This document shows, in pieces, positions 50 to 10,562 of a DNA stretch of 10,612 bases; the stretch's first letter is position 1, and every line of letters starts with the position of its first letter. The DNA is taken from the UHGV virus genome UHGV-0162104. One strand, 5' to 3'. The translations under genes and the position numbers were made by a program. Source of the stretch: a virus. The notes below the pieces were generated by a model, which saw nothing but the letters and a program-made list of their open reading frames with translations, searched no databases and was not told the DNA's origin.

Positions 50-2995
50 TTAGTGCTTCCCTTCTATTAAGTCTAACCTAGCTTTTATTCTTTCTATTTC
101 TCTGCGCTGCCATGCTGCCTCGATATAGAATAAGAGATCAGGTCTGACCCCCCATCTAGATCCTGCTGGCGTTATTTCAACGCGCTCAATGATGTCTTCC
201 ATTACCATCACTGGATTATCATCCTCATCAACAATGATGCTCCCGTCATTATCAGTCAGCGGCATTTCCCTTTGGCCAGTAATGACGTCATCATATACTG
301 CGGGATAATCGTCATAACAAAGAAAGGCATAGCGGCATGTTGTGCTTTCTTCTTCCATGAGTCCGTGAGAAATAAGAACATCACGAAGTTGCTGCGCGAT
401 TACACCATGATGTATCCTCGCCCCTTCTTCCCCCTTTATAGCGACAGCGTTCAGCCATTTATAAGCGATATACCTGACGTCACCCCAGGCATCCAGCAAT
501 GCTTCATCAGGAGAGACCGGCTCTGTCTTTAATGTTCCGTCACTGGTAACTACAGGGTTGGAGCCAAGATAAACTGTCGAGAACCTGTTTCCCGGATCAC
601 CAAGAGCATTTACATTATCAAGATAAGGTTTAACATCTCCGTTCTCAAAAAGATGTTCGAGTGCGTTATATACCGCGCGACGTGGAGTACTGCTTCCGGA
701 ACCATGCAACGTTATCATTGCACCATCTGCTGAAGACGTTGTTTCACCGCCGCTAACGATTAATCTCTGAGCGGTAACATCATCAGACGGTACTTTCTTC
801 GCAATAATGGCGTAATTACCCTCAAGTTTGACTTCCGCGCGAACTTGTCCTGATGTACCGGCATGGACAGTCAGTGACTGGACGGCAACATCATCTGTGA
901 AATCAACGGGTACAGGAACCGTCCTCACGCCTGACGTCGACATAAAAGTAGGAAGCGTTCTGTTAGGAGTGGCTCCGTAGACAAAATCCCTTGAAACAAA
1001 TTCTTCCTGTTTAATTTTCACCCTGAAACAATACAAATCAGCCGGGTGACCATCGTGAACATAAGGATATTTTCTGTTGTTATCCCCTATGCTCCATGGG
1101 TTTAGAAAGTCTTCCCCACCGAAAATGTAGTACAGCCAGTTGTCTTTGATACAAACTGAACCAACACCAACCGCAGAGTTAACTATTCCGCCCTGATAAA
1201 TCTGATCAGTAACATTAACCCACTCTACATTATCCAGACTCCACTCATTGACGTTAACTCTGGTCATAAATGTTCTTGGATAATTTCCTGCATAACGGTT
1301 ATCAGGTTCTCCTCCTTCCCACTCACCAAATGCGCGCTCACTGCCAAAAATAATCAGCTCATCGCCAACTTTGGCAAAAGGAAGGTTTGAGTGATGAACA
1401 TTATTTGGGAAGCGAAGAGAATTCCATGATGCACCTAAATCAGAGCTTCTGTGTAATGAACTACCGGGTTGAGTACTTAATGTTCCCCTGGTCGTCAGAT
1501 ACAGAATGCCATCATAATATTTTACACATGGCTCAGATGCATTCGCCTCATATTCTGCAGGTATGCGTCTGCGAACAAAGCTACCAGGAGAACCGAAAGC
1601 ATCAGAGAAATAGAGTATCCCAAGCTCGCGTGGCTCAATATCACCATTATGGTAGCCAACAGCAAAACTGTTATCGCTAATCGTCGCAAAACTGTGAATC
1701 TCAGTAACAGGAGTGCTTCCATCAACAAAAGAAGGAATAGTTCCAAGACGGGTTTTTCTCCATGGTGACGAGTGAAATGATGTACCAAAACTCCAGTATC
1801 TACCCTCGTTATTCTGATCCACATCCTGGGTATTTTGCGTCGTAACTGTAAAAGTATTTTTATCAATAACAGTAGTCACCGTCATATTCCCGGTAACACC
1901 TGTAACACCAGAGTTTGAGAAGTTGACAAAATCACCAGCAAATAATCCGTGATCAGTAATGCGAATATAAGCGACTTGCTGATTTGCTGCTTTCGTTATA
2001 CCACCATAAACGCGAAGGCTGCGACTCATTGGGCGATCCCACAACTCTGCAACCTGCAGTTTATTTCCGCTCACGGTCCGCGTCTCAATTACAGCAAAAA
2101 GGCGATTTCTGACAACCCCCATACTCATGCAGTGATAGTTAACTGTGGGATAGTTTTCATGTAAATCTGTAAGCCATTCCGGCGTTGTCCAGGTCTTCCC
2201 GTCATCTCCTGAGCGAACCCATGCAACATGGAGGTTATTTACACCATGGCGGTCTCCAGCCATAAAAGGCGCATAGATGACATTGTCATATACAAACGTC
2301 TTATCCTGCGTCCAGGCGTTGTACCACGGTGTATCTGTAATTTTAAACAACTCTCCCTGGATAAAATCTTCAGAAGCATAAAAAAGAGGCTGACCCGGTA
2401 TTCTCTCAAATAAAAAACGAGCATTTTTAAATCGACTGACATCCGGAAGAGTTGACACTTTAAAAGTAAGCCCTCGCCCATCTATCTTTTCACCACCTGT
2501 TGCAACAGAAAGTAATTCTGATAGAGCTGATGTGTCATCATGAACACCATCACCAATAGCCCCCCAACCTCTTAGATCATAACTGTCTCTCCATCTTGCT
2601 ATCTGAAGTTTTGGGTATTTATCCGCTCCATCTGGGTCTTCTAATTGCTGCCGTAGCTGATCAGGATCATACTTCAGCACATTAGGAAAATAGAACTGCT
2701 GTGCACCATACGCGTCATAAACAGCCATAGAATGGCCTTGCACAGTTACGAATTTGGCAATCTTCCCGTTATATACTGGGAATCCTGCTGCGTTAATAAC
2801 AATTGGCTGTGCTACCTGAACATGTTTACCATCTTCTCGTTCCAGATATACAGGGATCTGGTTTTCAGGATTTACAGGGTCAGTGTCAATTTTGCCGATA
2901 TAAATTTTGCCATTGGCTACGGCTTTAAAAGAACGCGCCATAGTGAAGAGTTGCGAAGGCATACTCACTACAACATTGGCTGTAATGTCTGTCAT
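50..2995 (-). CDS. Tailspike protein: P22-type head-binding N-terminal domain, sialidase-like central domain, C-terminal intramolecular-chaperone-like domain (predicted endosialidase-type capsule depolymerase)
   Basis: Intact 981-aa ORF with ATG at 2995..2993 and a GGAGA Shine-Dalgarno about 9 nt upstream. The first ~115 residues ([11 protein letters not shown]...[12 protein letters not shown]...VTVQGHSMA...NVLKYDPDQ) match the P22 gp9 head-binding domain as I recall it. Two Asp-box motifs (S-x-D-x-G-x-T/S-W) occur: SGDDGKTW at residues 262-269 (nt ~2189..2212) and SSDLGASW at residues 517-524 (nt ~1424..1447). The C-terminal ~150 residues (...[28 protein letters not shown]...) resemble the self-cleaving chaperone domain of endosialidases and other tail fibres. 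Confidence 0.8.
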
Positions 2996-3159
2996 TTAAT
3001 TTTCTCCAGACGTAGCAATGCGGAACAAGATGCAACTTGCCCGGCATTGCATTAATGTCAGTTATGATTTGTTAACTATGAGATGAGTCTATGCAAAAAG
3101 ATCTGTTGAATATTGCGTTCTATATATTTGGTTTTTGCACATTCCTGGTGTTTGCAAAG

Positions 3160-3885
3160 CTATTCTGACAACGAATCAGACTTCGCACCCTGCGTCAGGG
3201 CGTTAATTGCCTTTTGTGCCTGCTGCATGGCTTTCTCAAACGCTGTTGATCCGCGTGTGGTGTTTGCCATTCGGAGCATTGCATTTCTGAATGGCTCGCT
3301 CTCATAGGCGCGAGTAAGAAGTCCGTAGCTTACTGCTGCGCCAGTTGTCGCCGGGTTCATTGCCGTCCCATATCCAATAATGAACGGGATGGTTTGCTGC
3401 CCTGTGGGTGTTGTTACTGCCGCTTTTGCTGCCTGCTGAGTGGACTGAAGGTAGTTTTTCAATCCTTTCAGATAAGCAGCGTCCTGACCCTTAAATGTGA
3501 TGCCAGTCTGGTTTTGCAGGATGTTAAGCTGTCGAAGGAACTGGTCAGGGGAACCGCCTGATTTCTCCATTGCCTTGGCAATGATGCCATTGCGCATTTG
3601 CGCCCTGCCAACACGACCAACTGAGTTATACAGCGTCTTAATTTCCGATTTGTTCTTGCTGAATAGCATGTTGTTGACAACTTCCGGCGTCAGGTCGCCT
3701 TTCATGAGAACATTCTTCAGCCTGGTATTCTTTAGTTTCGCCGCTTCGTCAGCGTAGACGGCATTGGCCTGCTGATATTTACGGAGAGTATCGTTGCCAA
3801 GATTCTGACCAATGGCACCATTGATATCGTCAGTCATAGCCTTGTAAACGCGCTGAATGGCGGCATCGGAACGGTTTGGTAACAC
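3160..3885 (-). CDS. Ejection/DNA-transfer-like protein, either a separate 241-aa gene with a GTG start or the C-terminal part of a frameshifted larger gene
   Basis: 241-aa ORF directly upstream of the tailspike on the same strand, the position held by ejection proteins in P22-like phages. GTG start at 3885 preceded by AAGGG. It overlaps the upstream ORF by 51 nt. Function is assigned by position and composition only. Confidence 0.45.
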   Translation of the reverse strand: MLPNRSDAAIQRVYKAMTDDINGAIGQNLGNDTLRKYQQANAVYADEAAKLKNTRLKNVLMKGDLTPEVVNNMLFSKNKSEIKTLYNSVGRVGRAQMRNGIIAKAMEKSGGSPDQFLRQLNILQNQTGITFKGQDAAYLKGLKNYLQSTQQAAKAAVTTPTGQQTIPFIIGYGTAMNPATTGAAVSYGLLTRAYESEPFRNAMLRMANTTRGSTAFEKAMQQAQKAINALTQGAKSDSLSE

Positions 3886-5153
3886 AGGTCACCCTTCACG
3901 TCCATTCTGAACTGGCTGCGCAGATCGCTTAATTGCTTCAAATCCAGAGTTACCGGGCCATTAGGACCAGCATTGCGAACAAGCTCATCACGATATGACT
4001 GAAGTTTTGAAATCGTCTCGTTATCAGCGACCTTACCAAGCTTCTGCAGGTTAGATATCTCAGTATCTATCTGCTGAATTGCTCTGGCAGGTTGAATGTT
4101 GACTCCTGCCATTGCATTCCGAACCTGCTCAAGTCTATTACCTGCGGCACGACGAATTCCTGATGTTTTCGCTTTAAGGCTGTCAATAATAACCGCTGGA
4201 TCATACTCACCGAATTTATCAGCAAATCTCTGCACCAACTGACTTCTCGCTTCCTGTTGCGTTGCTCTCATTCCGCTTGTGCCAGCCAGGGGGATATTTT
4301 CTGCTGTCGTTTGCGCCATTTTTCCGACGCGGGAAGTAGGCTGTAAGAGGTCAGTAGTATGAAGAGGTACTCCTTCACGCTCTGCAAATCTGATAGCCTG
4401 TTGCGCTTCTGGTGCGATAGCACCACGAACGCCACGATAAGCAGCACCTAATCCACGTCCGGCAGCGTTAATAGCGCCTCCAGCCAAAACACCAACGCCT
4501 AAATCGGTGGCGAGTGCTTCCGCATCATCTTTCGCACTATTTGCAGCAAGTGTTCCGACTGCGTTTTCTGCGAGAAGGCGAGTTGCACCCTGAGCAATTC
4601 GACCAGCAAGTGTTGGTGCCAGTGTTGCCGCTCTCTCAACGCCAGCAGGAGTGAGATAAGGCAATGCCTCCGCAAATACCCTGCCCTCTGTCGTTTGTGG
4701 AGTCAGCGCGCCTTGCTGAAGACCAAAGTCCTGTTCTAATCCCTGCGTTGTTACTCGTGGCGCTGGTTGATATGTCCCATCGCCAATGCCGAGTTTACCG
4801 CCAGCCCATGCCGCCGCGCTTGTTACAGCATCGGCAACTGATGCAGGTATGTTTGCCACGTTCACGCCAGCCTGCACCAGTCCGCGACCAGTCTCTTTCA
4901 CTGCTTCACCAAGGTCAGACATAAATCTACTTTGCTGTGGTTGTTGCTGTGCTACTGGTTGCTGTGTCTCCACTGGCTGCACAGATGGCAATGGATAGGC
5001 AGCATAGAAAGCTTGCTTAGCCTGCTCTGCATTTTCTCCGGCTTGCGGTGCCACGACTTCATTGAAGTATTGCTCCTGAGCCTGCGCTTTTTGTTCTGGT
5101 GCTAACGCCTGATACTGTGGAGAGGCGATAACATCTTTCCATGCTTTAGCCAT
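3834..5153 (-). CDS. Ejection/DNA-transfer-like protein (P22 gp20/gp16-like by position), Ala/Gln/Gly-rich
   Basis: 439-aa ORF with ATG at 5153..5151 and GGGGTGA about 5 nt upstream. Its start overlaps the upstream stop in a TAATG coupling motif. The last ~18 residues (DLCYQTVPMPPFSAFTRL) look non-native, which suggests a frame problem near the 3' end. Confidence 0.5.
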   Translation of the reverse strand: MAKAWKDVIASPQYQALAPEQKAQAQEQYFNEVVAPQAGENAEQAKQAFYAAYPLPSVQPVETQQPVAQQQPQQSRFMSDLGEAVKETGRGLVQAGVNVANIPASVADAVTSAAAWAGGKLGIGDGTYQPAPRVTTQGLEQDFGLQQGALTPQTTEGRVFAEALPYLTPAGVERAATLAPTLAGRIAQGATRLLAENAVGTLAANSAKDDAEALATDLGVGVLAGGAINAAGRGLGAAYRGVRGAIAPEAQQAIRFAEREGVPLHTTDLLQPTSRVGKMAQTTAENIPLAGTSGMRATQQEARSQLVQRFADKFGEYDPAVIIDSLKAKTSGIRRAAGNRLEQVRNAMAGVNIQPARAIQQIDTEISNLQKLGKVADNETISKLQSYRDELVRNAGPNGPVTLDLKQLSDLRSQFRMDVKGDLCYQTVPMPPFSAFTRL

Positions 5154-5769
5154 TAATCACCCCATAGTGAAGAAAAGTTACTGCCAGTAGTAGATTGTTG
5201 CCCTGGCATATTCTGCACCGGCTCCTGATAATCAAACTGTTTTTTAACAGTGCTCAACTTGCTTTCAAGCTGATTTCTAATCTTTCCGATAGAGTCACGA
5301 AAAGCCTTTTCACTCATTTTGGGGCTTAGGGCACCAACCGCATCGGATAATTTTTTACCCTCAGCATCTGAAAGAGCGCCCATACCCTTCAGGGACTGCA
5401 CCATAGGAAGGAATGTTTGAGCTTTAAAGGTGTCGAGCCTTGCTTCAAAGTTAGCCGCATCAGAGCCAGGAACTGTCGGAAACGCTGAGCGAATTCCTAC
5501 TGCTTTTGAAAGGCCGGGGCTTTGCTCTATCTCGTTGAGAGAATCAAGCGCGGTGCTGAACGTATCAACTGCACCCTGAGCGGCGGCCTGCCTGTCAGCG
5601 CGGGCTATGTCAGCCTTTTGCCGAACATCTGCCTGTTTCTGTTTTAGCTCTTCAAGCTTTAACTGATTGCTTTCTCTGGCTATCTGTCTGTCCAGAGCCT
5701 TTTCTTGTAATTCTGCTCTTTGTATTTCGCGGGAAAGAGCAGCATTCTGTGCGCTGATGTTCTGTCCAC
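5153..5769 (-). pseudogene. 5'-truncated gene fragment encoding the C-terminal ~205 aa of a coiled-coil protein (ejection-protein-like by position); no start codon
   Basis: The minus-strand frame is open from ~5807 to the stop at 5153 and reads ...[68 protein letters not shown]...MVQSLKGMGAL...SSLWGD. There is no ATG, GTG or TTG upstream of the internal Met at 5404. Its 5' end runs into the truncated holin in another frame. The 83-aa ORF 5153..5404 in the supplied track is its tail. Confidence 0.55.
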
Positions 5770-6012
5770 GTAGCCGATGAACACGCTCGTTATATAAGCG
5801 AGATTGCTACTTAGTCCGGCGAAGTCGAGAAGGTCACGAATGAACCAGGCGATAATGGCGCACATCGTTGCGTCGATTACTGTTTTTGTAAACGCACCGC
5901 CATTATATCTGCCGCGAAGGTACGCCATTGCAAACGCAAGGATTGCCCCGATGCCTTGTTCCTTTGCCGCGAGAATGGCGGCTAACAGGTCATGTTTTTC
6001 TGGCATCTTCAT
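5770..6012 (-). pseudogene. S: Lambda-type class I holin S, 3'-truncated after codon 81 (of 107 in lambda S as I recall it) and fused to unrelated sequence
   Basis: Translation [81 protein letters not shown] matches lambda S from memory, including the Met1-Lys2-Met3 dual-start motif. After Y81 (nt 5772..5770) it continues as [29 protein letters not shown], unrelated to the lambda S tail, while another frame opens into the downstream fragment. Confidence 0.75.
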
Positions 6013-6303
6013 GTCTTACCCCCAATAAGGGGATTTGCTCTATTTAATTAGGAATAAGGTCGATTACTGATAGAACAAATCCAGGCTACTGTGTTTAGTA
6101 ATCAGATTTGTTCGTGACCGATATGCACGGGCAAAACGGCAGGAGGTTGTTAGCGCAGCCTCTTGCCACCCGCTTTCACGAAGCCAGCCATTGCGCTGGT
6201 TTTCATTTATGCAAAACACACCGCACCGTAGCCACAGCGGATAATGTGATTATTTTTGTCTGTCTGGTATTTGGTTTGATGTGCTTTCAGAAATGTCGTG
6301 CTT

Positions 6304-6338
6304 AAAACGCAAAAAGCCCCGAGCTATTAACTCAGGGC
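6304..6338 (-). terminator. Intrinsic terminator downstream of the late promoter (tR'-like)
   Basis: On the minus strand: GCCCTGAG / TTAATAG loop / CTCGGGGC, an 8-bp stem with one internal mismatch, followed directly by TTTTTGCGTTTT. It lies about 30-60 nt downstream of the predicted promoter. Confidence 0.6.
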
Positions 6339-6367
6339 TTTATTTAACGAGTGCATTTATCCATCGT

Positions 6368-6403
6368 TGAGTCAAATTTACCCAACTTTATTCAAAAAGT
6401 CAA
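6368..6403 (-). promoter_or_regulatory. Late promoter pR'-like with the adjacent Q-utilisation region
   Basis: On the minus strand: -35 TTGACT (6403..6398), 17-nt spacer, -10 TAAATT (6380..6375), then TGACTCAACGATGG. This closely matches the lambda pR'/qut sequence as I recall it, and it sits between the Q fragment and S in the correct orientation. Confidence 0.6.
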
Positions 6404-6445: not shown

Positions 6446-6841
6446 CTAACGTGTGACCGCGTTCAAAATGTTGTCTGCGATTGACTCTTCCTTGTGGCAT
6501 TGCACCACCAGAGCGTCATACAGCGGCTTAACAGTGCGTGACCAGGTGGGTTGGGTAAGGTTTGGGATTAGCATCGTCACAGCGCGATATGCGGCGCTTG
6601 CTGGCATCCTTGAATAACCGACGCCTTTGCATCTTCCACACTCTTTCTCAACAACTCTCCCCCACTGCTCTGTTTTGGCAATATCAACCGCCCGACCTGT
6701 ACCGTGGCAATCTCTGCATCTTGCACCAGGCGTCGCGGCACTACGGCAATAATCCGCATAAGCGAATGTTGCGAGCACTTGCAGTACCTTTGCCTTAGTA
6801 TTTCCTTCAAGCTTTGCAACGCCACGGTATTTCCCCGATAC
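6446..6841 (-). pseudogene. Q: Late antiterminator Q (lambda Q family), 3' portion only; no credible start codon
   Basis: Residues ...VSGKYRGVAKLEGNTKAKVLQVLATFAYADYCRSAATPGARCRDCHGTGRAVDIAKTEQWGRVVEKECGRCKGVGYSRMPASAAYRAVTMLIPNLTQPTWSRTVKPLYDALVVQCHKEESIADNILNAVTR match the C-terminal ~130 aa of lambda Q from memory, including the CxxC...CxxC zinc-binding pattern. The frame is open upstream only to 6955, with no ATG; the track's start at 6919 is a TTG. The first ~26 residues do not resemble the Q N-terminus. Confidence 0.65.
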
Positions 6842-6872
6842 CGCAACAGCTACTCCGGCGAAAGCAAAGAAA

Positions 6873-7005: not shown

Positions 7006-7566
7006 ATGACCACCATTACCAAAGAACGCGCGGAGATTAAATCATTCATCACTGGTTTCCTGAGCGACCCGGCGCACGATAACCAATCTTCAGACAGCCT
7101 GCTTGCCAATGTGTTTCGTATCGCACTGGCATCGCTGGAAGCCGAACCTGTAAGCCAGACTTACAACTTGCCAGAATTAATCGAAGGGATGGAAGTTTCC
7201 ATTGATGTAAGCACTTGTGATGCTGATTTAGGTAATCGCTATTTCGGTACCGTCACCGAGGCGTTAGAACTTGATACAGCCAAGAATGGTTACATCCTCC
7301 TTGTTCAGGACGCAGAGCCAAACTTCGATGTAAATGGCAACTCTCCGGTAACTCCGGATGGTTGGATAAGCTGTAGTGAGCGAATGCCAGAAGAAACGGG
7401 TGACATTATTGTTGTTTCGGATGGCATTGTAATGTCCGGGATTTCTTATTCTCGTCGTGACGGGTTCTATATAGCCGCATTGGAGTACGACGACGATGAA
7501 CCAATTGACGGTGTAACCCACTGGATGCATCTACCAGAACCGCCGCAGGAGGTTAACCGTGGCTAA
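7006..7566 (+). CDS. Early-region protein with a C-terminal DUF551-like domain
   Basis: 186-aa ORF with ATG at 7006. The C-terminal motif ...TPDGWISCSERMPEE...VTHWMHLPEPP is characteristic of DUF551 proteins common in prophage early regions. Same strand as xis and int. Confidence 0.7.
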   Translation: MTTITKERAEIKSFITGFLSDPAHDNQSSDSLLANVFRIALASLEAEPVSQTYNLPELIEGMEVSIDVSTCDADLGNRYFGTVTEALELDTAKNGYILLVQDAEPNFDVNGNSPVTPDGWISCSERMPEETGDIIVVSDGIVMSGISYSRRDGFYIAALEYDDDEPIDGVTHWMHLPEPPQEVNRG

Positions 7567-7843
7567 CCTGCAACTTGCCGTTAAAGGTGAATATTTCGAC
7601 CAGATGAAGTCAGGCGAGAAAACGGAAGAGTATCGCCTGTGTAATGACTACTGGAAAAAGCGCCTCGTTAACCGTAAGTATGACCGCCTGATTATCACAA
7701 AGGGATATCCGAAGCGCGACGACTTCAGTCGCAGAATTGATGTTCCGTATGACGGATATGAAATCAAGACAATCACACATCCGCACTTCGGCGATAAACC
7801 GGTAAAGGTGTTCGCGATAAAGGTGAATATCGGCAATGAATAA
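7559..7843 (+). CDS. ASCH-like (PUA-fold) domain protein
   Basis: 94-aa ORF with GTG start at 7559 and AGGAGG 6 nt upstream, overlapping the previous stop. It contains GEKTEEYR, which fits the ASCH GxKxxExR signature. Confidence 0.55.
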   Translation: MANLQLAVKGEYFDQMKSGEKTEEYRLCNDYWKKRLVNRKYDRLIITKGYPKRDDFSRRIDVPYDGYEIKTITHPHFGDKPVKVFAIKVNIGNE

Positions 7844-7847
7844 CAAT

Positions 7848-7874
7848 CCTCGCACTCGCGGGGATTTCTTTTAT
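7848..7874 (+). terminator. Candidate weak intrinsic terminator or attenuator after the ASCH-like gene
   Basis: CCTCGC / ACTC loop / GCGGGG, a 6-bp stem with one G-U pair, followed by ATTTCTTTTAT. Confidence 0.3.
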
Positions 7875-7885
7875 ATGGGGATAAT

Positions 7886-8686
7886 ATGACCATCCACTTT
7901 CACGGCAGCCCAATATGGGGTGATGAGCATGCCCCTACAGATATGCTGATTAAAGCCCTTTACCGTGATGGTGGGGCTTTTGTTTCATTTGCCAGACCAG
8001 AGCAGATGAAAAAGATTGCCATGTTCCCTTGTGATATACGCCTTGATAACGGCGCTTTTAGCGAATGGATGAAAGCATTAAAGAAAGGCACTCCGGTAGA
8101 CTGGAGTAAGAGACGAGCAAAATTCTACGACTTTGTTGGGAAGTGGTTCAGCAGAATTGAATGGTTTCTTATACCTGACGTTATCGAAGGGACAGAGGCA
8201 GAAAACGACGAGCAGATTGAGTTGGTTCCTGATTGGCTAAAATCAAAAGCGGTTCCGGTCTGGCATACCGACGAATCAATTGAACGTCTTTTACGCCTTT
8301 CTGGCAAATTTGAATGGGTGGCGATTGGATGCTGCGGCCCACACAGGCACATACGCTCTAAATGGTGGGAACAGAGAATGGATGAAGTTTTCACTGAGCT
8401 TTATATCAATCGTAATTTGAAAGTGAAAATTCATGGTCTTCGAATGCTCGACGTGAGAGTTCTTGGTATGTATCCGTTCGCCAGTGCGGATTCTACTAAT
8501 GTTGCTGTTAACGTACCGAAGACAGAGAAGCGATTTCCTGAGATTACCGACAAACTGGCACGTACAGCTGTACTTCGCGCAGCTATTGAAAAGGTGCACC
8601 CACCATCGATATCAGCGTGGGTAGACAGAAAGATGAGAGAGCCGGCGCAAGCCGGTTTTTTATTTGAATTCATCGACGCCGCTTAA
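7886..8686 (+). CDS. Hypothetical early-region protein of unknown function (266 aa)
   Basis: ATG at 7886 with GGGGA 5-6 nt upstream; long ORF on the same strand as the neighbouring early genes. No motif I can assign with confidence; it has an N-terminal HFHG and an internal GCCGPHRH. Confidence 0.6.
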   Translation: MTIHFHGSPIWGDEHAPTDMLIKALYRDGGAFVSFARPEQMKKIAMFPCDIRLDNGAFSEWMKALKKGTPVDWSKRRAKFYDFVGKWFSRIEWFLIPDVIEGTEAENDEQIELVPDWLKSKAVPVWHTDESIERLLRLSGKFEWVAIGCCGPHRHIRSKWWEQRMDEVFTELYINRNLKVKIHGLRMLDVRVLGMYPFASADSTNVAVNVPKTEKRFPEITDKLARTAVLRAAIEKVHPPSISAWVDRKMREPAQAGFLFEFIDAA

Positions 8687-8743
8687 TGCGGATTTCTTTT
8701 ATCTGAACTCGCTACGGCGGGTTTTGTTTTATGGAGACAAGAA

Positions 8744-9088
8744 ATGTCAGATTTGGCTATGAAGGTTTTGAAATGGCAATCAACTGGCGATGTCGGCATC
8801 AGTAGCGCAACTCTTGCCTCAATCGCATGTGGACTGAAAAAGAATATCTATGGTCATCACTTCGGCGCTCCACATGACGCAGCCGATTTCCGACGATGCG
8901 TTGCACTTGTTGAGCAGATTCCAGAAATCAGAGATTCATTCGACAAGGTTGCAAAGCGCGTTCCGGCATTCAAAGGCATCCTCAACGAATGGGATTCCCT
9001 CGTTGCTCTGTTGAAGTCTGAAATGAAGATACACGGAAACAAAGCACCAGAAACTTACAGAAGAATTAGCGAGCTACGCAAGGACTAA
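8744..9088 (+). CDS. Hypothetical early-region protein (114 aa)
   Basis: ATG at 8744 with GGAGA 6 nt upstream. No recognisable motif. Confidence 0.5.
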   Translation: MSDLAMKVLKWQSTGDVGISSATLASIACGLKKNIYGHHFGAPHDAADFRRCVALVEQIPEIRDSFDKVAKRVPAFKGILNEWDSLVALLKSEMKIHGNKAPETYRRISELRKD

Positions 9089-9094
9089 CCACAG

Positions 9095-9125
9095 CCTCAC
9101 ACTCGATGAGGCCTGTTCATTTCTC
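9095..9125 (+). terminator. Candidate intrinsic terminator between the early cargo genes and xis
   Basis: CCTCA / 7-nt loop / TGAGG (9095..9111) followed by the T-rich CCTGTTCATTTCTC. Confidence 0.3.
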
Positions 9126-9178
9126 AATGATATCCAGACCTACCGCAATAATACCAATTCAATAAATGGAGATTCCAA

Positions 9179-9469
9179 GTGGAAGAAGAAATCTTCACTC
9201 GTGAAGAAGCTGCGTCGTATCTGAAGGTAGACAAAGGCACTATCACGCAGTGGATACGAAGTGGACGACTTCAGGCCGCAAAGATAAATCCAGATAAACC
9301 TAAAAGCCCATATCGCATTTGCAAGTCAGACTGCATTGCGGCGCTTAAGTCTGTGAGACACAATAGCGCGGTGAATGCGGTTGATGTGCAGGAGGTTAAA
9401 GCATGTCAATCAAACTACGCGGTGGCACGTGGCACTGCGATTTCGTCGCGCCAGATGGATCAAGATTAG
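9179..9469 (+). CDS. xis: Excisionase (Xis/AlpA-like HTH DNA-binding protein), possibly shortened at its C-terminus by the same indel that disrupts int
   Basis: GTG start at 9179 with GGAG 7 nt upstream. The N-terminus FTREEAASYLKVDKGTITQWIRSGRL is a typical excisionase helix-turn-helix. It lies immediately upstream of and overlapping int. Stop TAG at 9467..9469. Confidence 0.7.
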   Translation: MEEEIFTREEAASYLKVDKGTITQWIRSGRLQAAKINPDKPKSPYRICKSDCIAALKSVRHNSAVNAVDVQEVKACQSNYAVARGTAISSRQMDQD

Positions 9470-10562
9470 ACGCTCTCTTGAAACATCGGACAAAAGGCAA
9501 GCGCAAGAACTTCACGATCGTCTGAAAGCAGAAGCGTGGAGAGTAAAAAATCTCGGGGAATCACCGAAAAAGCTATTCAAGGAAGCCTGCATACGGTGGC
9601 TGCGTGAGAAATCGGATAAGAAGTCCATTGATGATGACAAGAGCATTATATCGTTCTGGATGTTGCACTTCAGAGAAACCATTCTCTCTGACATAACAAC
9701 AGAAAAAATAATGGAGGCGGTAGACGGGATGGAAAACCGCCGCCATCGCCTGAACTGGGAGATGAGCCGGGACAGGTGTTTGCGGCTTGGCAAGCCAGTG
9801 CCGGAGTATAAACCAAAGCTGGCAAGCAAAGGAACGAAGACGCGGCATCTGGCAATACTTCGCGCTATTCTCAATATGGCTGTTGAATGGGGATGGCTTG
9901 ACAGGACGCCAAAAATATCAACACCACGCGTTAAGAATGGACGAATCAGATGGCTTACAGAGGAGGAATCGAAGCGCCTGTTTGCAGAAATTGTTCCTCA
10001 TATCTTCCCTGTGGTCATGTTTGCAATCACGACAGGCCTTCGCCGTTCCAACGTTACAGACCTTGAGTGGTCACAGGTCGATCTGGATAAGAAAATGGCA
10101 TGGATGCACCCTGATGAAACAAAAGCTGGCAATGCGATCGGAGTTCCTCTTAACGAAACCGCATGCCAGATATTAAGAAAACAGCAGGGACTCCATAAGA
10201 GATGGGTATTTGTCCACACCAAACCTGCCTACCGAAGCGACGGAACAAAAACAGCAGCGGTAAGGAAGATGAGAACCGACAGCAACAAAGCATGGAAGGG
10301 AGCGTTAAAGCGGGCAGGCATTAGCAATTTCCGCTTCCATGACCTGAGGCATACCTGGGCAAGCTGGCTGGTTCAGTCCGGTGTCTCTCTTCTTGCACTT
10401 AAAGAAATGGGAGGATGGGAAACTCTCGAAATGGTTCAAAGATACGCTCACCTTTCAGCCGGGCATCTCACCGAGCACGCGAGCAAAATCGATGCGATTA
10501 TAAGTCGCAATGGCACAAATACGGCACAAGAGGAGAACGTAGTTTACTTAAATGCGAGGTAA
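9403..10562 (+). CDS. int: Tyrosine site-specific integrase (P22 Int family) with an apparent 1-nt frameshift near codon 20-21; possible pseudogene or sequencing error
   Basis: ATG at 9403 with GGAGG 7 nt upstream gives MSIKLRGGTWHCDFVAPDGS..., resembling the P22-family Int N-terminus as I recall it, then stops at 9523..9525. The body of the protein is in another frame (track ORF 9375..10562) and contains the catalytic signatures HDLRHTWASW and VQRYAHL. Stop at 10560..10562, 15 nt before the tRNA 3' end. Confidence 0.85.

Follow-up and report, generated by a model that had tools for sequence, protein, structure and literature searches.

The DNA analysed here, a stretch of 10,612 nucleotides from the virus genome UHGV-0162104 (the window), very probably represents most of a ~12-kb defective P22-like prophage (Lederbergvirus; related to Sf6 and CUS-3) at thrW, in which a deletion has left a scar between the holin gene and gp20, the gene of an ejection protein. 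The host lineage of the remnant is Escherichia (E. coli / E. ruysiae). The chimeric structure of the holin-gp20 junction is unambiguous. Heavily decayed P22-like prophages with deletion scars are objects of a well-known kind, and by itself the junction documents how one prophage was disarmed. What is unexpected is the gp20 breakpoint, as four or five other remnants, whose left partners differ, are broken within 10 nt of it; otherwise the holin-gp20 junction is ordinary prophage decay.

The holin gene is fused out of frame to an ejection-protein gene

The original prediction held that the holin follows lambda S through Y81 and then changes to unrelated sequence, and this is accurate to the base, as judged from both the open reading frame (ORF) and the split between BLAST matches. 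When the minus strand from 6250 to 5100 was used as a megablast query against 50,697 phage records, the matches parted exactly at the junction, into query positions 1-481 (6250..5770) and 479-1151 (5772..5100). The first part is ~98% identical to the pR'-holin regions of HK140, HK544, Sf101, Gally and others, and the second is 98.7% identical to Sf6 genes 12/13 and 99% identical to vB_EcoP-720R6 (both on the minus strand). In a three-way alignment, in which a slash marks the joint, the holin parent reads ...TTCATCGGCTAC/ATCGG, the gp20 parent ...ATCCAGATAC/GTGGACAG and the window ...TTCATCGGCTAC/GTGGACAG, so that 3 nt (TAC) are common to both parents; on the minus strand this TAC, at 5772..5770, is the Y81 codon of the holin ORF. 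Because the C at 5770 both ends the S codon and begins a gp20 codon, the two reading frames are one base apart in the fusion. Microhomology, which had been suggested as something to look for at the breakpoint, is thus present; as at least 3 nt are expected to be shared at ~5% of random junctions (P about 0.05), a 3-nt microhomology is typical of illegitimate joining and weakly informative alone. The features of the window are listed in Table 1.

Table 1. Location of the junctions, genes and signals in the window.
Feature	Position	Strand	Description
Tailspike gene, intact, CUS-3 type	50..2995	-	981 aa; P22 head-binding and endosialidase domains
gp16-family ejection-protein gene, pseudogene	3156..5153	-	PF26808; ORFs of 439 and 241 aa
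3' part of gp20 / Sf6 gene 12 ejection-protein gene	5153..5770	-	Codons 227-431 and stop; from BLAST and the ORF list
Holin fusion ORF	5680..6012	-	110 aa; S codons 1-81 and 29 out-of-frame gp20 residues
Deletion junction	5770..5772	-	Shared TAC; holin ...GGCTAC/ATCGG, gp20 ...CCAGATAC/GTGG
tR'-like terminator	6341..6313	-	Upstream of holin; equivalents annotated in HK140
pR'-like late promoter	6403..6375	-	TTGACT-17-TAAATT, upstream of holin
Truncated antiterminator Q gene	6446..6842	-	PF03589; homologous to Gally Q from ~codon 76
Second deletion junction	6836..6842	+	7-nt microhomology CGATACC; Q joined inside a DUF7739 early-left gene
Surviving early-left end	7006..10562	+	DUF551, ASCH-like, two unknown genes, excisionase-like HTH, tyrosine integrase by thrW

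Across the joint, another minus-strand frame, one base out of register with the holin ORF, stays open from ~5807 to a stop at 5153, and its first ATG lies only at 5404. This frame had been described in advance as open without a start codon and coupled by TAATG to the next gene, and its translation confirms the description: the TAATG at 5153-5157 closes the gp20 frame and overlaps the start of the gp16-family gene, an arrangement of translational coupling. The structural gene into the middle of which S codons 1-81 had been said to run proves to be that of the ejection protein gp20, the Sf6 gene 12 product being the homologue of the P22 gene 20 protein. The gp20 frame is read from R at 5770..5768 and, from codon 227 of 431, is 99% identical to Sf6 and vB_EcoP-720R6. 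The fragment lacks both a start codon and a ribosome-binding context, and gene callers report only an 83-aa ORF (5153..5404). Compared with the Sf6 gene 12 protein and P22 gp20, the remnant retains this C-terminal half (codons 227-431) but lacks the conserved N-terminal module (~225 aa, PF16928) together with its start codon, and a search of 2.2 kb upstream of the fragment did not find the N-terminal half of gp20. Since the N-terminal 226 residues and the start codon are absent, no functional ejection protein would be possible. The C-terminal half of gp20 is widely called an 'acyltransferase' in RefSeq (L003, L004, L077; P0005, P0012-P0014), a name that is misleading.

On the other side of the joint, residues 1-81 of the 110-aa ORF are lambda-type S, whereas the remaining 29 residues are unlike anything in holins. 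The profile PF05106 (Phage_holin_3_1) aligns to residues 8-82 over profile positions 9-83 of 99 with a score of 83.3 bits, the Pfam gathering cut-off being 23.8. Residues 1-81 are essentially the same as in the lambda S holin (class I, S105/S107 dual start), including the first two membrane segments and the Met-Lys-Met dual start (MKMPEKHD... at 6012), and a 108-aa version from the second Met is also on record. In contrast to lambda S, 29 frame-shifted residues take the place of the last part of the third segment and of all of the cytoplasmic regulatory tail. Homology stops at Y81, and the fusion therefore does not have the full three transmembrane segments with a native charged C-terminal regulatory tail; in a hydropathy profile its third hydrophobic segment is shortened, falling after residue 82 as compared with approximately residue 91 in HK140 S, and the new 29-residue tail is basic, with a net charge of +5.

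One might suppose that no deletion has occurred, the different C-terminus of the ORF being that of a naturally occurring holin allele and the small gene behind it an independent one. The NCBI record of the product (WP_309246991.1, MULTISPECIES Escherichia) is named simply 'phage holin, lambda family', and a basic tail is what holin tails have. However, the tail comes from wrong-frame translation of gp20 DNA, the frame downstream of it matches Sf6 gene 12 at 99% identity from codon 227 and has no start codon, and the arrangement is found in the thrW remnant context only. Neither the phage records nor the complete E. coli genomes contained an intact phage with such a holin C-terminus. A natural allele is therefore extremely improbable; WP_309246991.1 represents a frame-shift fusion of holin and gp20 rather than a normal holin, and its database name is misleading.

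An assembly or scaffolding artefact, joining lambdoid lysis reads to P22-like ejection-gene reads, deserves no more credence. It is true that no sequence spanning the junction was found in the phage records or in 5,426 complete E. coli genomes, and that a 42-nt junction string did not occur in the GTDB representative genomes. Yet at least 12 contigs, which come from drafts at NCBI, metagenome assemblies at ENA and Logan assemblies, encode exactly this 110-aa product, so that the identical fusion, in an identical gene order, recurs in independent assemblies made with different assemblers, and the protein stands as a MULTISPECIES record at NCBI. UniRef places the product in E. ruysiae, which probably accounts for the fusion missing from the E. 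coli genome set.

A single deletion would account for the junction

Where the two flanks map in intact phages had been posed as a check, and both map in single intact P22-like phages, namely vB_EcoP-720R6 (hereafter 720R6), Gally and Sf101. The most useful of these is 720R6 (ON470605), the record of an intact P22-like prophage with the same orientation and the same holin type as the window. Positions 3089-5772 of the window correspond to 12772-15459 of the 720R6 record, with 95.5% identity to relatives on this right side, and positions 5770-6181 correspond to 28983-29394, with 99.3% identity on the holin side. The flanks are consequently ~13.5 kb apart in 720R6 (15459 versus 28983). The parents are identifiable, collinear in 720R6 and overlapping by 3 nt, as in a simple microhomology-mediated deletion.

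The interval that separates the flanks in 720R6 holds what the deletion had been predicted to remove, that is, the rest of the lysis cassette and the terminase, portal and capsid genes. At the lysis end it contains S codons 82-107, endolysin, spanin, two small ORFs, Rha and gene 67; these are followed by the packaging and head genes, which comprise both terminase subunits, portal, scaffold, coat and then a small ORF; the rest consists of homologues of gp4, gp10, needle, gp14 and gp7 and of the first 226 codons of the gp20 homologue.

We propose that the holin end at codon 81, either a DNA end or a nascent 3' end, was joined to gp20 codon 227 via TAC, and that this joining would have been one illegitimate-recombination deletion of ~13.5 kb inside the late operon. 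Because intact P22-like phages carry both flanks in the same order and orientation, one deletion within one prophage suffices. The size and the single-step origin of the deletion are estimates, as the parents are deduced from mosaic relatives rather than from the true ancestor. Illegitimate recombination between two elements, such as a P22-like prophage and a lambdoid phage that entered the cell or already resided there, seems improbable to us. In its favour, phage-prophage exchange is well documented (PMC3945230), and the best relatives differ between the part from int to S, which has an mEp043/HK75-type int and a lambda-type Q-S module, and the part from gp20 to the tailspike, which resembles Sf6, CUS-3 and 720R6. 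Nevertheless, the Q-S module and these ejection genes already occur together in 720R6, Gally and Sf101, ordered and oriented as in the window; Gally and Sf101, like 720R6, combine a lambda-type Q-S module with P22-type virion genes. A deletion within a single mosaic prophage is thus the reading that we prefer.

Such a deletion resembles the illegitimate recombination that microhomology mediates in E. coli (by alternative end joining, or by template switching once a fork has collapsed): the junctions in this and related remnants share 2-7 nt, and DNA is lost on the kilobase scale. It differs from random end joining in that different elements have one end in common, at an identical position, which random joining would not predict.

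Contents and decay of the remnant

The contigs that carry the fusion have a constant gene order: proA, tRNA-Thr(CGU), integrase, HTH/excisionase, three small genes, DUF551 and truncated Q, and then the holin fusion, the 83-aa ORF, the split gp16 gene, the endosialidase tailspike and a hexapeptide acetyltransferase. The element is bounded by attL and attR, a 219-nt direct repeat that begins inside thrW, ~12.1 kb apart.

The holin-gp20 junction is not the only lesion. A second deletion, which joins Q to the early-left end, cost the element its ea, recombination and N genes along with those of immunity, replication and the nin region, a stretch of ~13.4 kb in Gally. Also lost, from between 3010 and 3089, is the immI region with mnt and its neighbours, which spans 1.46 kb in 720R6 and more, with ant, in CUS-3; the gap adjoins the gp16 homologue on one side and the tailspike gene on the other. 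Finally, relative to three intact homologues, the gp16 homologue has suffered a 4-nt deletion near 3890, which shifts the frame. A further split of the gp16-family gene was seen in a related assembly (L067).

The tailspike gene alone among those of a functional Lederbergvirus prophage is intact, since gp16 is frameshifted and gp20, S and Q are truncated, and the remaining genes that a P22-like prophage requires are absent between attL and attR. With the lysis, packaging, head and most tail-hub and ejection genes deleted, the remnant is, on its gene content, predicted to be able neither to lyse the cell nor to make particles. Expression of lambda S requires Q, and in the remnant Q is truncated while pR' and tR' are intact; for this reason the holin fusion is probably silent and would not be transcribed beyond tR'.

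The closest parallels are found among other P22-like elements. The E. coli O104:H4 outbreak strain carries a defective P22-like prophage that keeps its tailspike and a surface-modifying acetyltransferase (PMC3303846). Like remnants of that type, ours has undergone a large internal deletion of virion genes and has kept the tailspike and the adjacent acetyltransferase gene at the integration site; in contrast to them, it lies at thrW, has an endosialidase tailspike and shows the holin/gp20 junction and three further lesions. CUS-3, the K1-specific P22-like prophage of E. coli RS218, has the same endosialidase domains, with ~97% DNA identity in the tailspike region. However, CUS-3 is complete whereas the window element has lost ~27 kb, and the integrase of the window is closest to the thrW integrases of the mEp043/mEp213/HK75 type.

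The receptor-specific end of the phage, a K1-type endosialidase tailspike, thus survives in an otherwise dead element. In longer contigs the tailspike is followed by a hexapeptide-repeat acetyltransferase gene (neuO-like; L064 16115-16786). The intact K1-capsule-specific endosialidase tailspike and the acetyltransferase are parts that the host may domesticate or that incoming phages may reuse.

The break in gp20 recurs in other remnants

The gp20 end of the junction corresponds to nt ~670-680 of Sf6 gene 12 (L001 1494-1503; window 5770-5772), and breaks at this site were found in the loci L003, L004, L028, L177 and L092. The PGAP annotation of two complete E. coli genomes shows an 'acyltransferase' truncated at its 5' end at the gp20 fragment, which starts at the same point of gp20 as in the window but adjoins different DNA. 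The left partners of the clustered breaks include DUF551, portal, terminase, needle and gp10. The break falls at TA(C)/GTGG in three cases: in G4/9 the left partner is antisense DUF551 (left parent CCATTAC/CCGG, shared TAC); in L028 (IMG/VR UViG_2737471841_000007) it is the start of portal (CCTGTA/T, shared TA); and in L177 (GCA_053408335.1) it is codon 106 of the terminase large subunit (ACTGTA/A, shared TA), which is joined in frame to give the protein P0004, ...GETNETV/RGQNISAQ. In P276M the partner is the needle gene and the crossover lies 9 nt upstream. L092 (IMGVR_UViG_2718218434_000004) has a different C-terminal module ('type E') and is cut right after the RGQDI codons, at the equivalent position, ~783 nt upstream of the start of gp16.

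Other gp20 ends, in six or so remnants, lie at +35 nt (W13-16 and ETEC strains related to it), +110, ~+200, +248, +306 and ~+380, and some remnants end in the N-terminal half of gp20 (proteins P0017 and P0020). If the window event is taken as given, three of the ten other end points fall within ±3 nt of it, for which the binomial tail is 3e-4 under a uniform distribution across 500 nt and 2e-5 when the entire gene is taken as the target, in a sample that is small and comes in part from searches anchored at the junction. Of 59 other IMG/VR contigs that carry the 31-mer following the site, 58 were intact over at least 100 nt upstream, the sole exception being L028. Likewise, a pattern that combined a non-intact base at -4 with the right flank matched only L028 in IMG/VR and had no match in the JGI metagenomes or GTDB genomes. 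No mirror-image remnant, with the N-terminal half of gp20 kept and the C-terminal half lost, was present in ~165 viral contigs, and for type E no right-only partial match was seen in a sample of 60 out of 1,087 E. coli genome records.

The site coincides with a discontinuity in the gene itself. Homologues of gp20 share a nearly invariant N-terminal region of 220-odd residues (...AGEALxxRGQ), after which they diverge completely; between Sf6 and the other C-terminal types, DNA homology stops at 1474-1511 of the Sf6 locus, a stretch that takes in the clustered deletion ends (1494-1503). Mosaic modules within the gp20 gene have been described before (PMC10883804, citing Casjens and Thuman-Commike). 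A clustering of deletion ends at the joint between these modules was not described in the literature that we searched.

We consider it somewhat probable that the gp20-side end is non-random and marks a zone of 10 nt, prone to breaks or joints, where the conserved module meets the variable one. That the common breakpoint arose by coincidence or shared descent from a deletion with a random end is quite possible, if not the reading we favour. The sample is small and some of the searches were junction-anchored, other end points are scattered through the gp20 gene, and L177 could derive from an L028-like junction by a secondary deletion at 5 nt (CTGTA). Against this, the left partners are unrelated (holin, antisense DUF551, portal, terminase and needle), the downstream modules differ in gp16 and tailspike type, including between L028 and L177, a C-terminal module of a different type breaks at the equivalent point (L092), and the binomial tail is 3e-4 to 1e-5. 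The broader statement, that the conserved/variable boundary of the gp20 gene is a preferred site of DNA breakage or strand-joining in P22-like prophages, is put forward tentatively and with some doubt. If true, the recurrent breakpoint would tie prophage decay and phage gene mosaicism to one physical site, and would be an experimentally tractable handle on the placement of illegitimate joints in temperate phage genomes.

Possible causes of the recurrence

Across the remnants the retained end is fixed, 2-3 nt are paired and the lost side is variable. We propose a model in which a 3' end or a template position would be fixed at the gp20 boundary and would then be primed or ligated after one-sided resection. 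Recombination intermediates formed with heterotypic phages, stalling where homology ends, are a possible cause; a site- or structure-specific nick or nuclease is an alternative. The same process would make the mosaic joints of gp20 and would start the one-sided deletions that produce remnants.

The left end in L092 lies 3 nt 3' of a Chi octamer (GCTGGTGG) that is oriented for RecBCD arriving from the gp20 side. A left end just 3' of a correctly oriented Chi is expected after RecBCD resection, and the position of this Chi suggests that RecBCD resected one side, starting from a break close to where the gp20 modules meet. For the retained side, resection limited by Chi was rejected, as the window has no Chi in either orientation, the nearest resemblance being ACATCAGC, with two mismatches.

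Several other causes were considered and set aside. CRISPR self-targeting was rejected on finding no spacer-sized match in the 5,426 E. coli genomes, where the weakest match was 60 nt. The sequence CCAGATAC/GTGG fits the cutting positions of BstXI (CCAN6TGG) and BsaAI (YAC/GTR), a post hoc match. A restriction-type cause was set aside, since the sites are not unique (11 in 720R6), the Q junction is not at one and the type-E sequence differs. Breakage driven by a hairpin is likewise unsuitable: the 13-nt imperfect inverted repeat is 24 nt away, inside the retained DNA, and a cut there cannot give the observed end. That repeat is also the sole repeat nearby, and the joint is unlike the thrW att core, so that we do not regard the junction as a scar of site-specific recombination or transposition. 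An adjacent deletion mediated by an insertion sequence (IS) that was later lost was discarded because none of ~250 related loci had an IS at the site. Finally, an HNH/NUMOD4 endonuclease gene was dismissed as the cause, being present in few loci only, in varying places and several kb from gp20.

Two minor observations were made in the course of these comparisons. In E. coli W13-16, a P22-like remnant has an HNH/NUMOD4 homing-endonuclease-like gene (L077 4099-4632) with gp10 on one side and the needle gene on the other, and distant homologues of it occur at other positions in a few viral contigs. In Salmonella enterica, P0012 and P0027 are gp20 variants that lack the seven residues DITVRGQ through a slip of 21 nt from one imperfect RGQ(D/N)I repeat to the other, the two repeats lying on either side of the clustered breaks.
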